Virus record (IMG/VR): IMGVR_UViG_2706794693_000007
Strand: one strand, 5' to 3'
From: a virus
Lineage: Duplodnaviria; Heunggongvirae; Uroviricota; Caudoviricetes
Length of the DNA stretch: 39,432 bases
Shown here piece by piece: positions 22,803 to 28,860 of this stretch. Every line of letters begins with the position of its first letter. The first letter of the stretch is position 1. Both the position numbers and the translations under genes were made by a program. A model generated the notes under the pieces. The model made no database searches. It worked only from the letters and a program-made list of their open reading frames with translations, and was not told where the DNA came from.

Positions 22803-24375
22803 CCAGCATCCCCTTCATTTCCGCAGCAAACATGGCATCACTGAGCAGCGTCATCAGGCGGGAATCATCCATTTCACGGTAAAGGGCAGGCAGGTCTGCC
22901 AGTGCCTCCGCCAGCCCCCGCGTTCTGATGACATCAATGACCGGCTCCAGCACCGGATCGATGGCCTCCTGTAAGCGGCGGGCAGGCACCGCGTCCCCCA
23001 TGTCGTCCAGTTCATCACGCGGCGTGTTTTTCGCTTCCGGCAGTCGGGCTGAAAGCGCCGTCTGTTCTGTCTTTTCCTGTTTTTCCGGTAGCGTTTCCCT
23101 GTCAGGCATGGCCGGTTCATTACTGCTCTGACGGACACGGAATATGGCTTCACCGGGCGTGGGCTGTGGAATACCGGTCTGATCCCGTACCCAGGGATCA
23201 GGAATATCCATCCCCGCACTGAGTTGCATCACCGCACTGGCTATTTTGGTGATATCCCCCGGTTCTTTGGTCTGGAAACAGATACGCGGCAGGCGACGGA
23301 TATCAATGGCGTGGGCGGTGTTCAGGGCATACAGCGGATACACCAGATCGCGGTTCAGGGTTGCAGCCAGCTGGCGTAAATCAGAATCCCTGATTTCCCG
23401 GCGCACCTCGTTATGCACCTCACCCAGCGAGCGCGCGCCTTTGTCTCCGGCTTCTGTGGTCAGCGTGCCGCCGAGTATTGCTTTGGAGATGGAACGCTCA
23501 CCCCACGAAATCATGGTTTCAAACGGATCGGCCTGACCGTTCGCTGCCGCCTGAAACTCCAGCGACATCCCGGCCGGGATGATCCCGCCTGTACGTCGCC
23601 CGATATCCATCACCGCCCGCATCAGGGCACTTTTCTGCTCCGGTGTTGCCCCGGACGGGTATTTCCCGACCTTCATTGGCAGGCCGTACACCTCCAGAAA
23701 TTCCGCCAGATCGCGCACGGAATAGTTTTTGAAAATGAACGGCCAGATAAGCGTTCTGACAAGCCCCGTCGCACCACCGTAGCCGGTGCGTGAACGCGAC
23801 TGATGCACTATCCAGCCAAAGGGCTGAAACGCCACCCCGGCATGGCTGCCGTCACGCAGCCGCAGTTCGCTCAAATCATCCGGGTTAAGGCAGAAATGCC
23901 CGCTGTCACGCCAGCGGATGGCGCGGATGATGTGCATTTTACCGAGCATCCCGTGCTCAATTTCCATGCAGGAATAGCCCTTCAGGATGGCATCCGTGGC
24001 GTCAAACAGCATGGCATCAAACCAGTCTGCGGAATGCAGATATTCGTCGAGCATTTCCGCGTCCTTTTTCTCATTCGCGCTGGCGTTCGGTGGCGGCTCA
24101 ATACTCCATGGCACCCCCTGAATGGCAAGACGTCGCTTGCCCAGCTCCGCAAAAAGGTGGGTGTCCTTTTCTTCAATATCAGCGGCCAGATCGGACTGGG
24201 CAATCAGATCGCCACGTTCAGCCCCGCGAAGGCACTGCGCCGCCCGGTTCGGGGTGATACCCGAAGCCGGATGTTCAATATAACGGCTGGCAATCTGCGG
24301 AATATCCAGCGCGGCACTCTGCATCTCCGGGTCAAAGGAGAAAGGTTTTCCGTCAGTATCAATGATGCGTCCCAC
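22786..24375 (-). CDS. Portal protein (Mu gp29/H-like)
   Basis: 529 aa, follows large terminase with overlapping stop/start. Confidence 0.85.
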   Translation of the reverse strand: MGRIIDTDGKPFSFDPEMQSAALDIPQIASRYIEHPASGITPNRAAQCLRGAERGDLIAQSDLAADIEEKDTHLFAELGKRRLAIQGVPWSIEPPPNASANEKKDAEMLDEYLHSADWFDAMLFDATDAILKGYSCMEIEHGMLGKMHIIRAIRWRDSGHFCLNPDDLSELRLRDGSHAGVAFQPFGWIVHQSRSRTGYGGATGLVRTLIWPFIFKNYSVRDLAEFLEVYGLPMKVGKYPSGATPEQKSALMRAVMDIGRRTGGIIPAGMSLEFQAAANGQADPFETMISWGERSISKAILGGTLTTEAGDKGARSLGEVHNEVRREIRDSDLRQLAATLNRDLVYPLYALNTAHAIDIRRLPRICFQTKEPGDITKIASAVMQLSAGMDIPDPWVRDQTGIPQPTPGEAIFRVRQSSNEPAMPDRETLPEKQEKTEQTALSARLPEAKNTPRDELDDMGDAVPARRLQEAIDPVLEPVIDVIRTRGLAEALADLPALYREMDDSRLMTLLSDAMFAAEMKGMLDGSGD

Positions 24376-26042
24376 TACCAGCCCCCCCGATCAAATTCAT
24401 GATATGCCTCATCGTCATCACGATAACCGCCCTCCATTGCCCGCGACCGCTCCTGTAGCGCCTGACAGGCTGATTCATCCAGGATGAAGCCCTCCATGTA
24501 TGACGCCCGGTTTGCCATACAGAGCGCCACGGCAAAATCACCATGGCGGCGGGCGTTCGCAGCCGTTGCGTTCTGGTCCTTCGTGCGCCCCTTGTCGATT
24601 TGCGGGATACCATTCACTACCTTCACATGGCGCAAATCATCAAGCGTGGTCTGATGGCGGGCGACGAGGATATTCTGATCTTCAAACTCGGCTTTCAGTT
24701 TTGGCATCCACTCGCCGTACCACTTCGGCGACAACATCACGCAGTCGATGATGTCCGGGCCAAAGGCCAGCAGTGCGGCCTCTGCCAGATAGCCGCCGTT
24801 ACCGGTGGCGTCGAACGCCGCACCGACCAGCGCCGGAACGCGGGTCAGGATGTACATCATCACCTGTTCCTGCTGGGCATACGGCAGGTTGCGCAGCTCC
24901 ACGCGAAACACCTCGCGCTTTGCCAGGGATTCGGTGATTTCCAGCAGCACAAAGCAGGACAGGTCACCGGTGCGGGCAAAGTCTTCCCCGAAGCTGAAGC
25001 GGGAACGGGGATTTAATTTCTCTAAAAGCGGTTTTAAATGTTCTTCACACCAGGTTAAAACTTCCGATTCACGCAGCCATGCGGCACGGCTGATGAAGTT
25101 GTCCGGGGCTTCAAACGTCAGAATCGGGATGTCGCGGATCATCGCCATTTCAATAAGCGCGTGGGGGATATAGGCACCGCCGGATTTTTTCGGGATACAG
25201 CCGTATTCCTCGTCGGCATCCTCACGGGTCGGGGCGTTTTTGTAGAGATCATCACGCCATTTCTGCTCGCTTTCCGGTGACCATTCCTGATCGGTGACGT
25301 AACAGATACGACGGTACAGCCCGTCCGCAATGGCATCATCCAGGGTTATGCGGTGGACGCTGTAATCCTTGCGCCCCTCGCGGGCTTCCTGAATGTACTG
25401 ATTAAACAGATTATCGACGCCGTTATGCGTGGAGATAATACGCACGCGCGCGCCCCACATAGTGAGCGCCATTGCCGCCTTGAGAAGCTCATCCAGTGAC
25501 TCGTGGAACGCGGCTTCATCAATCACCACATCCCCCTGAAGGCCGCGCAGGTTTGACGGACGGGAAGACAATGCCTGAATTTTGAATCCACTGTTCGGAA
25601 AGCGGATCATGTAGGTCAAAATTTCTTCTTTTTTATCCCGATCCCAGAATGTCTGCTCATACACATCAGCATCTGCCAGCTGGTTAAAGGCACGGGAGAA
25701 CAGCGCGCAGGCAGAAATATATTCCAGCGCCATCTCCTGCTTTGATCCCACATAAAACACATTGCGGCCACCACGACGCTTCGGTTTTGCAGCAGTAATG
25801 ACGTTACGCCCGGCTTCCGCCCAGGTAAGACCGGTGCGGCGGGATTTCTCCGCGATGCAGACCTGACTTTCATCTGCAAACCAGCGGGCCTGATAATCCA
25901 GAAACACCGGCATATCACCGGGCAAATCAAGGCTGTCCGGCACATCCACGCCCAGCAGGGCTTTTTCACCTGACAGATCAATTTTGCGGGGAGGCGTCAT
26001 TTGCATCAGTGAAGGCGACGTTTCTCTGGCTTTGTTCATCAT
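24375..26042 (-). CDS. Terminase large subunit (Mu gp28-like)
   Basis: 555 aa, between small-terminase-like gene and portal. Confidence 0.85.
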   Translation of the reverse strand: MMNKARETSPSLMQMTPPRKIDLSGEKALLGVDVPDSLDLPGDMPVFLDYQARWFADESQVCIAEKSRRTGLTWAEAGRNVITAAKPKRRGGRNVFYVGSKQEMALEYISACALFSRAFNQLADADVYEQTFWDRDKKEEILTYMIRFPNSGFKIQALSSRPSNLRGLQGDVVIDEAAFHESLDELLKAAMALTMWGARVRIISTHNGVDNLFNQYIQEAREGRKDYSVHRITLDDAIADGLYRRICYVTDQEWSPESEQKWRDDLYKNAPTREDADEEYGCIPKKSGGAYIPHALIEMAMIRDIPILTFEAPDNFISRAAWLRESEVLTWCEEHLKPLLEKLNPRSRFSFGEDFARTGDLSCFVLLEITESLAKREVFRVELRNLPYAQQEQVMMYILTRVPALVGAAFDATGNGGYLAEAALLAFGPDIIDCVMLSPKWYGEWMPKLKAEFEDQNILVARHQTTLDDLRHVKVVNGIPQIDKGRTKDQNATAANARRHGDFAVALCMANRASYMEGFILDESACQALQERSRAMEGGYRDDDEAYHEFDRGGW

Positions 26043-26287
26043 GCTTTACCTGTCAGAATGCTTTTGATTCGGGACTCAAGCTCTTCAGTCATCACGTCCA
26101 CGCCGCTCAACTCATCAGTGGCAGCCTCTGCCAGCAGCGAATGCAGTTGTTCCAGGGATATTTCCCCGGCAATGCTGAGTTCAGTCAACTCACGACATAC
26201 CTTTATGGTTTCAGGAGGTAACTGTGTTGCAAGACTGAATGCTTTCTGATGGGCACTGCTCATCAGTGAGCGGTTATCTGTTGCCAT
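26039..26287 (-). CDS. 82-aa protein homologous to the C-terminal part of the upstream small-terminase-like protein
   Basis: AGGAGG RBS; C-terminus TDELSGVDVMTEELESRIKSILTGKA vs VTDELRGVDGMSEQIEFRIRQMLLGKA of the 193-aa protein. Confidence 0.6.
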   Translation of the reverse strand: MATDNRSLMSSAHQKAFSLATQLPPETIKVCRELTELSIAGEISLEQLHSLLAEAATDELSGVDVMTEELESRIKSILTGKA

Positions 26288-26297
26288 GATTCACCTC

Positions 26298-26879
26298 CTA
26301 CGCCTTACCCAGCAGCATCTGCCTGATACGGAATTCGATCTGCTCGCTCATGCCATCCACGCCGCGCAACTCATCGGTGACCGCATTCGCCATCTCTTCA
26401 GCAAATGCGGCCCGGATTTCTTTTTCACGCTTAATGCTGCGCTCGGCGGCACTTTCTGCACGCTGTGCCGACAGGAGGATGTCCTTAATAAGGCGCATAT
26501 CCACATCGCTGTCGCTGTTCAGGGATTCGGTGGCGGCACGCAGACGGCGGTACATCAGGGCACGGGACATCTCCAGAATCAGTGCCGTGGTTTCACCGGT
26601 CGGCTTATCCCCCAGTTCGGCCATCATGGCTTTTGTCTGCTCGCGTAAATCACGCAGATTACGGGCAATCAGCTCATTACGGGAGGCTTCCCGGCTGATG
26701 GCCGCCGGTGAGAGCTGCTGCTCTTCCGGCAGACCTGCTTCACGGATCAGACGGTTGATTTCCTCGCGGATCTGGACCTGCGTCAGACGTTTTTCACGCA
26801 GCATTTCCAGCAGCGGCTTACGGATGCTGTCGGGGAGCAAATCCACCTTGCGTACACGGCCACGCGCTGGCTTATCCAT
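26298..26879 (-). CDS. Terminase small subunit-like protein (Mu gp27-like)
   Basis: 193 aa, helical, directly upstream of large terminase. Confidence 0.65.
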   Translation of the reverse strand: MDKPARGRVRKVDLLPDSIRKPLLEMLREKRLTQVQIREEINRLIREAGLPEEQQLSPAAISREASRNELIARNLRDLREQTKAMMAELGDKPTGETTALILEMSRALMYRRLRAATESLNSDSDVDMRLIKDILLSAQRAESAAERSIKREKEIRAAFAEEMANAVTDELRGVDGMSEQIEFRIRQMLLGKA

Positions 26880-26881
26880 CG

Positions 26882-27172
26882 TTACCCCCTTGCGCGTGGT
26901 TTCTTCACACCCGGAACGGTGGCGCGGCCTTCCGCCACATCCTGACCCCGGCCGGTCAGTTCAGCGATGAAATAACCGTTAACAAGCGTGCGCTTACGCA
27001 CCAGTCCCTGCTCGGCAAGCCAGGCAATGTGGGTATGAACGGTGTCGCGGGACACGCGGTGACCGTAATCATCCAGGCAGTCCTGAAGCACGGATTCGCC
27101 CAGTTCGCCGTTGTAATCCGCCAGCGACCGCAGAATGACAAGACGCTGATCTTCAGTAATGAAATCACTCAT
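26882..27172 (-). CDS. Hypothetical protein (Mu gp26 position)
   Basis: 96 aa ORF in late operon. Confidence 0.5.
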   Translation of the reverse strand: MSDFITEDQRLVILRSLADYNGELGESVLQDCLDDYGHRVSRDTVHTHIAWLAEQGLVRKRTLVNGYFIAELTGRGQDVAEGRATVPGVKKPRARG

Positions 27173-27476
27173 TGTGTTTTTTCCTTACAGCCTGCTCCAG
27201 CAGCAGTTCGTTCTGATGGGAGACGGATTTCAGGGTGGCATTGGTGGCCTTAAGCTCACCGCGCAGGGTGGTGATTTCGATATTGAGTCTGTTCACCTCC
27301 TGCTGCGTGGGCAGGCCGGAAATCCGGCTCTCCACCCGCTCAACCCGGTCGGAGAGTTTTTCAAAGGCCTCGCGGGGGACAAAGGTTTTGCGCATCAGCG
27401 CCATGAAGATCCCCCCGGCTGTGGCCGTTGCCGACAGGATCGGCACGACATAATCTTTAACGATGCTGACCCACAT
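27165..27476 (-). CDS. Membrane protein with N-terminal TM helix and coiled coil (possible lysis accessory/releasin-like)
   Basis: 103 aa; hydrophobic VVPILSATATAGGIFMALM then heptad-rich region; lies in lysis neighbourhood. Confidence 0.5.
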   Translation of the reverse strand: MWVSIVKDYVVPILSATATAGGIFMALMRKTFVPREAFEKLSDRVERVESRISGLPTQQEVNRLNIEITTLRGELKATNATLKSVSHQNELLLEQAVRKKHNE

Positions 27477-27694: not shown

Positions 27695-28066
27695 TTACTT
27701 CGTCTTTCCTGCCGGAACAGCAGTCGTTCCGGCCATATCAGTAAATTCATGCTGTCGCTGTGTCTCCAGACGGCGGATGCTGGCCTTGTCCACGTTGCAG
27801 TTTTTAATCACCGCCAGCAGTTGCAGGTTGTAAGTGACCGATGCACCAAACGTGAACGGCTGCGGCGCGGGAGGGACCAGGCAGTCAGCCAGCCATTCAG
27901 CGGGGATCGGCACCGGCTTCACCGGCACGTATTTCACAGACGGCCCGCCGCACCCGGTCAGCCACATCATCAGGCACAGGCACAGCGGCAGCAGGCACCG
28001 TTGCCAGTGACCGGCGGACAATGCTCTGCTGTTCCTCGCTGTGCTGCATGTTCTGCTGTTTTTCAT
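27695..28066 (-). CDS. Outer-membrane spanin (o-spanin, Rz1-like lipoprotein), overlapping the i-spanin gene in another frame
   Basis: Lipobox LTGC after hydrophobic LLPLCLCLMMW; Pro-rich mature part; start codon choice uncertain. Confidence 0.5.
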   Translation of the reverse strand: MKNSRTCSTARNSRALSAGHWQRCLLPLCLCLMMWLTGCGGPSVKYVPVKPVPIPAEWLADCLVPPAPQPFTFGASVTYNLQLLAVIKNCNVDKASIRRLETQRQHEFTDMAGTTAVPAGKTK

Positions 28067-28250
28067 TCGTGGCCGCCTTGCTGATTTGTGAAATGAGTTG
28101 CAGGGTGCGTTGCTGGTTTGCCAGCACCAGACGGGCTTCGTCCCGTTCACGCACAAGCACATGATTATTGTCCTCAAGGCGCTGCGTCTTCTGGTGCATT
28201 CCCCATACCACGGCAGCCAGCACGCTCATCACCCCCAGCGCCGCCATACA
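27897..28250 (-). CDS. Inner-membrane spanin (i-spanin, Rz-like)
   Basis: GGAGG RBS 6 nt before ATG 28250; N-terminal TM AALGVMSVLAAVVWG followed by long charged coiled coil. Confidence 0.6.
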   Translation of the reverse strand, partial: CMAALGVMSVLAAVVWGMHQKTQRLEDNNHVLVRERDEARLVLANQQRTLQLISQISKAATNEKQQNMQHSEEQQSIVRRSLATVPAAAVPVPDDVADRVRRAVCEIRAGEAGADPR

Positions 28251-28359
28251 GCCTCCGGCAATCAGGGCCGGTAAGGGATTGTTCACCGCAGACACAGCAC
28301 ACCCCGCAGCAGCACAACGGCACACAGCAGCGCAATCATGAGCGGTCGCCAGAAGCGGT

Positions 28360-28860
28360 TCAGACTTTCGGCAAATCGTAACGACATAACCATTCATCCG
28401 CCGAACGGCGGGCCTCAAGACCGGGGAGTTTTACCCCCTTTGAATAAATCCAGCGGATATACTGCTTACAGGACGCGGGCATCTGCCCGGCATTGATAAG
28501 GCGCAGGAGCGTGGAGTTGCGAAAGTTCGTTTCACCGGCCCAGAAAATCCAGGAGGCCAGCGCCACCGTCTGACCACGGGTAAGCGGCACCTGAACATGA
28601 CGATCGATAGCCGCAAAGGCCCATTTCATGTCCTTTTCCAGCAGCTCCAGACACTCTTCATCAGTTTTTGTCATCCCCGGTTTCACATCCGGGCCGGTAT
28701 GGCCGTAACAGATGGTGGGGGTGCCGGTGGGATCAATGTACGTGGTGTTTTCTTTCCCTTCCCAGTAGCCGGTGTAGTGCGTGGCAATGGTGAACGTCCC
28801 GGCTCCGGCCAGAACAAGGGCAATCAGCTTTTTACGCAGGGGTGCGGGGAGTTTTGGCAT
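28360..28860 (-). CDS. SAR endolysin (T4-lysozyme-type, signal-arrest-release N-terminus)
   Basis: 166 aa; Gly/Ala-rich weakly hydrophobic N-terminus LIALVLAGAGTFTIATHY; lysozyme block YWEGKENTTYIDPTGTPTICYGHT. Confidence 0.8.
   Translation of the reverse strand: MPKLPAPLRKKLIALVLAGAGTFTIATHYTGYWEGKENTTYIDPTGTPTICYGHTGPDVKPGMTKTDEECLELLEKDMKWAFAAIDRHVQVPLTRGQTVALASWIFWAGETNFRNSTLLRLINAGQMPASCKQYIRWIYSKGVKLPGLEARRSADEWLCRYDLPKV

Follow-up and report, generated by a model that had tools for sequence, protein, structure and literature searches.

The stretch of DNA analysed here, IMG/VR record IMGVR_UViG_2706794693_000007 (39,432 nucleotides at full length, hereafter the window), is a Mu-like, transposable prophage of Escherichia coli whose late genes lie on the minus strand. 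Between the gene for its predicted small terminase subunit (TerS), gp27, and that for its large terminase subunit (TerL) lies an open reading frame (ORF) of 82 codons, ORF82 (26039-26287, minus strand), in which two separate homologies meet. Codons 1 to 51 (the N-domain; 26135..26287, minus strand) are unrelated to Gp27 in hidden Markov model (HMM) and BLASTP searches, and codons 52 to 82 (the tail; 26042..26134, minus strand) derive from a gp27 3’ end. On balance, ORF82 is probably a chimeric, real but dispensable gene of the late operon, placed in a variable slot between the two terminase genes, and its Gp27-like tail is mainly a footprint of recombination.

The flanking genes were assigned by family searches. 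gp27 (26298..26879, minus strand; 193 aa) belongs to the Gp27/DUF3486 family by Pfam (Phage_Mu_Gp27, PF11985; E 3e-33, 116 bits) and by PHROG (PHROG 426, ‘terminase small subunit’; E 2e-54). TerL (24375..26039, minus strand, or to 26042 with an earlier start; 554 aa from the conserved ATG) matched PHROG 2, ‘terminase large subunit’, with E 5e-43. The complete genome of E. coli strain 102651 is 99.9% identical across the region; ORF82 is annotated there as a hypothetical protein, and the Prokaryotic Genome Annotation Pipeline placed the TerL start at the second ATG, which shares one base with the ORF82 stop. Strain TOE17, like 102651, matches the window at over 99%.

A preliminary description of the window had presented ORF82 as a partial paralogue of the adjacent small-terminase-like protein, sharing about 60 C-terminal residues with it. 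Pairwise alignment supported a similarity well above chance: BLASTP aligned ORF82 residues 52-82 (LAEAATDELSGVDVMTEELESRIKSILTGKA) with Gp27 residues 163-193 (MANAVTDELRGVDGMSEQIEFRIRQMLLGKA; 26301..26393, minus strand) at 18/31 identical (58%) and 24/31 positive positions, E 3e-10, so that the DNA carries the tail as two repeat copies, the first in gp27 and the second in ORF82. ORF82 also matches phrog_30922, a group of 82-aa proteins of unknown function, over its full length (E 6.9e-52, residues 2-82 on profile positions 2-82), and the profile of that group in turn matches Gp27 residues 162-193 at E 6e-8. The similarity is shorter than had been claimed, as BLASTP ended at the last 31 residues and, when the profile of the small-ORF family was aligned with that of 55 Gp27 sequences (hhalign), a longer alignment had a probability of 2%. 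We therefore rejected homology over some 60 residues.

The shared segment is also not a copy of the gene next door. Aligned with the adjacent gp27 tail, the ORF82 tail agrees at 63/96 nt and 19/31 aa; aligned with the gp27 tail of E. coli prophages that lack the ORF, its closest counterpart, it agrees at 75/96 nt and 23/31 aa. The 60 nt that follow the ORF82 tail, at the 5’ end of TerL, are likewise closest to the ORF-less E. coli prophage type. A recent tandem partial duplication of the adjacent gp27 was rejected on these grounds. Against its closest relative, the ORF82 tail has a synonymous difference (pS) of 0.40 and a non-synonymous difference (pN) of 0.16, with 74% identity kept, and a pS of this size argues against any recent local duplication. 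The paralogy first described thus holds for the tail, which is real and shared, and fails both for residues 1-51, which belong to another family, and for descent from the neighbouring copy.

Conservation in the Gp27 family is highest over the C-terminal 40 residues. Among 55 distinct sequences the motif EIRAAFA is 100% invariant, followed by invariant A164, G176, I185, L190 and G191. While its last 31 residues are homologous to this C-terminal helix-loop-helix tail, ORF82 lacks EIRAAFA, keeps the equivalents of A164, I185 and G191, and has V in place of G176 and T in place of L190, two replacements (V65 and T79) that are fixed in all ORF82 sequences. The helix-turn-helix (HTH) and long helical core of the Gp27 family are missing from this 82-aa protein with an N-domain of a different family, and PF11985 did not match ORF82 even at E 0.1.

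For the N-domain, we searched an HMM of the ORF82 alignment against 1.84 billion representative proteins. Outside its own family it returned one match, the 67-aa protein P0012 (query positions 1-56, E 1.2e-10; BLASTP of ORF82 against P0012, 2e-19). The locus encoding P0012, L094, has a gp27 with the same tail DNA, the same Shine-Dalgarno (SD) sequence and the same first 34 codons as ORF82; after codon 34, P0012 continues to a C-terminus of its own (…LQTLVAHAQSSRRGKT), without the Gp27 tail. The gp27 tail (…EQIEFRIRQMLLGKA), the SD and the 5’ end of the small ORF constitute one co-travelling module, identical in L094. Beyond P0012 lies a 119-nt spacer, and then a TerL with a different N-terminus. 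In two more distant enterobacterial Mu-like phages (L035 and L039; gp27 about 73% identical), the same slot holds a 65-aa ORF homologous to ORF82 residues 4-46 (BLASTP E 5e-6), again without the tail. These homologues in the same slot of other phages are 54% and 35% identical to ORF82. As judged from their sequences, P0012, the L035/L039 ORFs and the N-domain of ORF82 form a small-protein family specific to the gp27-TerL junction, which we define here. As the other members are tail-less, ORF82 is a slot-specific N-domain fused to a Gp27 tail.

Searches for other sources or relatives of the N-domain were negative. The unique 165 nt of ORF82 had no source elsewhere in the window in any frame by sensitive blastn and six-frame tblastn; Pfam, NCBIfam and PADLOC gave no assignment for ORF82, P0012 or the L039 ORF; and the DNA of the P0012 type (type c) had no match in complete E. 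coli genomes. A MAFFT alignment had raised the possibility that the ORF82 N-terminus came from a duplicated TerL 5’ end. We judged the 9-nt match involved to be chance; it was not recovered by blastn or tblastn of the unique 165 nt against the prophage stretch and its relatives.

Other occupants of the slot were also seen. Two IMG/VR uncultivated viral genomes, L019 (3082-3114) and L024, have the window-type gp27 tail and the ORF82 SD, then ‘MATD’ within a mini-ORF of 9 codons, MATDWFSYE*, the stop of which overlaps the start of a type-c TerL; they are apparently deletion derivatives of a P0012-type locus that lost the small ORF. An unrelated 63-68-aa protein of phrog_1761/5120 (…LQYFKY.HLP..LQ.VSKPF…ALRKLLEAKD) fills the slot in L075-L077, and L085, L087 and L093 have 50-54-aa hydrophobic ORFs resembling membrane peptides there.

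To determine how ORF82 is distributed, we compared 3 kb around the locus with 5426 complete E. coli genomes, obtaining 236 records in 235 genomes. End-to-end alignment with the query was seen in 27 records (at least 95% identity), whereas 205 records (90-95% identity) aligned in two pieces and omitted 259 bp, which is exactly how far apart the gp27 and ORF82 stops lie. In these ORF-less relatives, a type that includes the O157 Mu-like prophage, gp27 ends in …EQLESRIKGILLGKA and directly overlaps TerL. DNA specific to ORF82 was found in 25 complete genomes (29 places), always as an annotated coding sequence adjoining gp27. Thus, related prophages, which the preliminary description had proposed to examine, gave a divided answer: the gene is absent from about 90% of close relatives and intact where present. 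E. coli, Shigella and E. albertii together account for at least 1000 contigs that encode the exact ORF82 protein, always labeled ‘hypothetical’. A scan of one genome per species contained no ORF82 relatives, which marks the family as narrow (Escherichia/Shigella and a few metagenomic contigs).

Some strains have several copies of the ORF82 region: AP022815 in 3 places, AP022811 in 2, and CP166879 in 2 of 4 places. Two to three copies of the prophage region per strain suggest current or recent activity of this phage type in transposition or lysogenisation.

The boundaries of ORF82 are as distinctive as its distribution. Its SD, AGGAGGTGA (26291-26299, minus strand), was read from the sequence, with a spacing of 6 nt from its AGGAGG core to the ATG, and is much stronger than that of gp27 or TerL; the coordinates and strong AGGAGG site first reported for the 82-aa ORF were confirmed. 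The SD overlaps the TAG stop of gp27 (26298-26300) in the context GCG-TAG-GAGGTGAATC-ATG. At its other end, ORF82 closes with SILTGKA, and its TGA (26039-26041) overlaps the conserved TerL ATG (26037-26039) in a TGATG (26037..26041, minus strand), as is seen in Gp27 proteins ending in ...ILG[IK]A; an SD-like AGGT/GGGT for TerL lies inside the G-K-A codons, just upstream. ORF82 therefore holds the position usual for gp27, directly before and overlapping TerL. We compared 79 viral loci with Gp27 relatives (30-99% identity): in the great majority gp27 runs directly into TerL, its stop overlapping the start of that gene, and a Pseudomonas relative has the same arrangement. Since direct overlap of these two genes is the rule, loci with an ORF in between represent the derived state or the exception. 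No promoter-like site was found on either strand in 25700-27300, and we therefore read ORF82 as part of the late operon.

These boundaries suggest how a gp27 tail could have come to end another gene. The 3’ end of gp27 would carry the ribosome-binding region of TerL together with the overlapping stop and start, so that whichever gene ends at the junction would acquire the peptide tail and, with it, coupling to TerL. Because a recombination edge lying inside this 3’ end would make the new ORF finish in a gp27 tail, ORF82 can be read as an in-frame chimera of a helical N-domain from the slot family (codons 1-51) and the 3’ end of a gp27 allele (codons 52-82). The resident gp27 would now end just upstream, its stop inside the strong SD of ORF82, and TerL translation would be coupled through the TGATG to ORF82 and no longer to gp27, as ribosomes that load at the ORF82 SD would finish translation on the start codon of TerL. 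The apparent paralogy of the tail would then be mainly a footprint of mosaic recombination, kept because its DNA is needed in cis for TerL expression. Both translation of ORF82 and its coupling to TerL are predicted here from the arrangement of signals, and whether the event was an insertion or a deletion is likewise a matter of inference.

The start of TerL fits this mosaic pattern. The first 52 nt of TerL diverge from ORF-less relatives and the remainder is 97% identical; by sequence, the first ~17 codons (about 25990-26039) and the ORF82 tail would form a single mosaic block. The first ~17-20 TerL residues occurred in three or more allelic forms, MNKARETSPSLMQMT.., MNNAEELSPLLTNTVST.. and MSKRTGEEKIKPDTGLIKLS.. 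(seen in the window, L001, L094 and L019), in phages whose TerL bodies are 97-99% identical. In the wider TerL family, both the length and the sequence of what precedes the conserved VLLGYQ.RW motif are hypervariable.

Patterns of substitution place ORF82 apart from its neighbors. It is intact in 12/12 loci, representing 7 haplotypes with ATG or GTG starts, and its pN/pS is about 0.4 overall and 0.51 in the tail, vs 0.009 for gp27, 0 for the gp26-like gene and 0.10 for TerL. Among the 12 ORF82-bearing loci, the gp27 tail is invariant as protein (pN = 0 at pS 0.155), whereas the ORF82 tail of these same phages has 6 non-synonymous sites. ORF82 looks like a genuine gene under weak constraint, and the features of its sequence make it very probable that the protein is made.

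Several observations weigh against reading the tail mainly as a footprint. It is not simply decaying: the pN of 0.16 against a pS of 0.40, with V65 and T79 fixed in all members, makes some protein-level selection on the tail plausible, and a pure cis-element model leaves such selection unexplained. The requirement in cis can account for only the last ~15-20 nt of the 93-nt tail, and the translation of ORF82 and the coupling of TerL to it, on which this reading depends, are themselves inferred from sequence. Finally, informative sites would also allow an origin of the ORF-less forms by deletion between the two repeat copies of the tail; across the three tails these sites form a graded pattern, with no clean switch that would separate insertion from deletion. 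We accordingly give a sizeable minority chance to the tail still having a role as protein, and a small one to that role being modulation of the terminase.

In the most durable alternative, the ORF82 tail would mimic that of TerS, docking at the TerL site used by the Gp27 C-terminus and competing with, timing or modulating terminase assembly; the small protein, presumed abundant, might serve its own phage or work against other Mu-like phages in the same cell. Significant tail homology is the starting point for this proposal, and structural prediction is consistent with it. The AlphaFold2 (AF2) model of ORF82 has four helices (3-22, 25-39, 45-60 and 68-79) at a mean predicted local distance difference test (pLDDT) score of 70, with three helices at pLDDT 70-84 in the N-domain and a poorly defined tail. 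That of Gp27 is of low confidence (pLDDT 58) and has an N-terminal HTH-like helix pair, three long helices, a loop (172-178) that holds the invariant Gly, and a terminal helix (179-189). Since the two models share an ending, the common segment is predicted to be a helix end, loop and terminal helix in both proteins. Comparison of the ORF82 model with viral structures gave no fold match with E below 0.8, and the Gp27 profile matched nothing among PDB sequences with E below 0.1.

The strong SD, a tail pN/pS below 1 across a long divergence, and the precedent of small terminase-targeting proteins encoded by satellites, such as Rpp (PMC6739421), also favor such mimicry, as does the contact between the TerS C-terminus and the TerL N-terminus in lambda and P22 (PMC9611059). 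A corresponding contact in a Mu-like phage is possible by analogy with these two TerS proteins. Since the TerL N-terminal extension is hypervariable family-wide and the Gp27 tail is conserved, a pairing like that of P22 is not obviously transferable. The absent EIRAAFA and the replaced G176 and L190, the variation of the ORF82 tail in phages that keep their gp27 tail invariant, the N-domain homologues that exist without any tail, and the lack of the gene in most close relatives all speak against mimicry, and we consider it unlikely. The preliminary description had suggested that the short protein might compete with or regulate the packaging complex. By analogy this is possible, yet it is not the best-supported interpretation; absence from most relatives, tail-less homologues, lost invariant residues and relaxed constraint reduce the standing of an important regulatory role.

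An improbable variant gives work to both halves of the chimera, with ORF82 as an adaptor in which an accessory domain of the slot has captured a TerS docking tail that delivers it to TerL or to the TerS ring. If so, it could tune the initiation of packaging, or exclude the terminase of competing Mu-like phages with a different allele of the tail or of the TerL N-terminus, and would be a phage-encoded counterpart of the satellite proteins Rpp and Ppi, built by a fusion resembling exon shuffling.

At the other extreme, ORF82 might be a non-functional scar of recombination, open by chance and youth, whose DNA matters only as the TerL initiation region and a spacer. Its weak constraint relative to gp27 and TerL, its absence from most relatives and its lack of any family annotation would fit, as would the few truncated, frameshifted or in-frame-deleted versions held in databases (P0003, P0004, P0008-P0010). 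Opposing this are a perfect SD, a reading frame intact in all 12 loci and annotated in 25/25 complete genomes, a pN/pS below 1, and diverged homologues that persist in the same slot of other phages. Its N-terminus occurs as two divergent alleles, MATDNRSLMSSAHQKAF and MEKNIRALIISARHEAF, which differ at 10/15 of the first residues (about 11/22) yet keep the same residue pattern. We regard a mere scar as quite improbable. That the tail packs on the Gp27 oligomer rather than on TerL, with ORF82 joining or capping TerS rings as a poison subunit, draws on the contacts that the conserved Gp27 C-terminal region could contribute and on TerS C-terminal moieties that insert into another TerS (PMC9611059), and is made very unlikely indeed by the low-confidence gp27 model, the missing invariant residues and the dispensability of ORF82.

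If ORF82 is, as we favor, a chimeric gene with a tail left by recombination, its nearest parallels are the small genes found at the junctions of mosaic phage genomes. ORF82 resembles morons and mosaic junction genes in being variable, dispensable and small, in lying at a fixed boundary between conserved genes, and in having recombination joints at or inside gene ends; unlike classical morons, which come with a promoter and a terminator, it has neither, and it is fused in frame to a fragment of its neighbor’s family. The locus offers a clean natural example of gene-boundary mosaic recombination making a chimeric small protein while the coupling of an essential downstream gene is preserved. Among satellites, Staphylococcus aureus pathogenicity islands encode Ppi, a small protein that targets the phage terminase small subunit or the holoenzyme. 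Rpp of phage-inducible chromosomal islands is also a small protein that targets terminase (PMC6739421), and ORF82 would resemble it in mechanism if it mimics TerS. Rpp and Ppi are satellite-encoded, act against a helper phage and are not made from any part of TerS, whereas ORF82 is phage-encoded and known here from its sequence.

A positional parallel exists in Pseudomonas Mu-like phages, where the TerS-TerL position holds the accessory genes tab and atab (JBD26 genes 30 and 31; PMC10884400). Like these (PMC10884400), ORF82 is a small gene that separates TerS from TerL in a Mu-like phage and is variably present among close relatives, and like JBD26 atab, which overlaps the stop of its TerS gene (PMC10884400), it is a forward gene joined to that stop, here through its SD, and read as part of the late operon. 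The proteins themselves share no sequence similarity: BLASTP of ORF82 against JBD26 gp30 and gp31 gave no match at E up to 100, and we rejected homology to Tab or anti-Tab. In addition, the JBD26 TerS belongs to a different family, neither Tab protein has a TerS tail, and the ORF82 locus has no evident opposite-strand partner gene with its own promoter. The comparison extends the TerS-TerL hotspot for accessory genes from Pseudomonas D3112-like phages to enterobacterial Gp27-type Mu-like phages. The natural variants at this junction (no ORF, an ORF with the tail, an ORF without it, and a 9-codon remnant) can be used to probe whether the conserved Gp27 tail is a TerL-docking element. If the tail is functional, ORF82 would be a phage-encoded modulator of terminase; if not, it would be an ordinary mosaic accessory gene.

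An ORF on the opposite strand inside ORF82 (26058-26249, plus strand; 63 aa) is open in all seven haplotypes and encodes a serine-rich, low-complexity product. We rejected it as a gene: with neither an SD nor a promoter, it probably represents a frame artefact.

The late genes around the locus run in the order gemA-like, mor, lysozyme, Rz/Rz1-like, TraR/DksA zinc finger, DUF2730 and a 96-aa protein of the VpaChn25_0724 family, followed by gp27, ORF82 and TerL. Nested and overlapping ORFs downstream of the lysozyme gene (27695-28418, minus strand) are the counterparts of the pair annotated in relatives as Rz/Rz1-like (LysC) spanins. The 96-aa protein (26882-27172, minus strand), directly upstream of gp27, has weak, sub-threshold matches to HTH_12, HTH_20 and ArsR (winged-helix/HTH), and, as a putative small DNA-binding protein beside the small terminase, might join in pac recognition. 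Only 2 nt (26880-26881) separate its gene from gp27 in the prophage. A 291-aa Gp27 homologue, P0014, is 96% identical across the full query, and its length fits a fusion of the 96-aa VpaChn25_0724-family gene with gp27.

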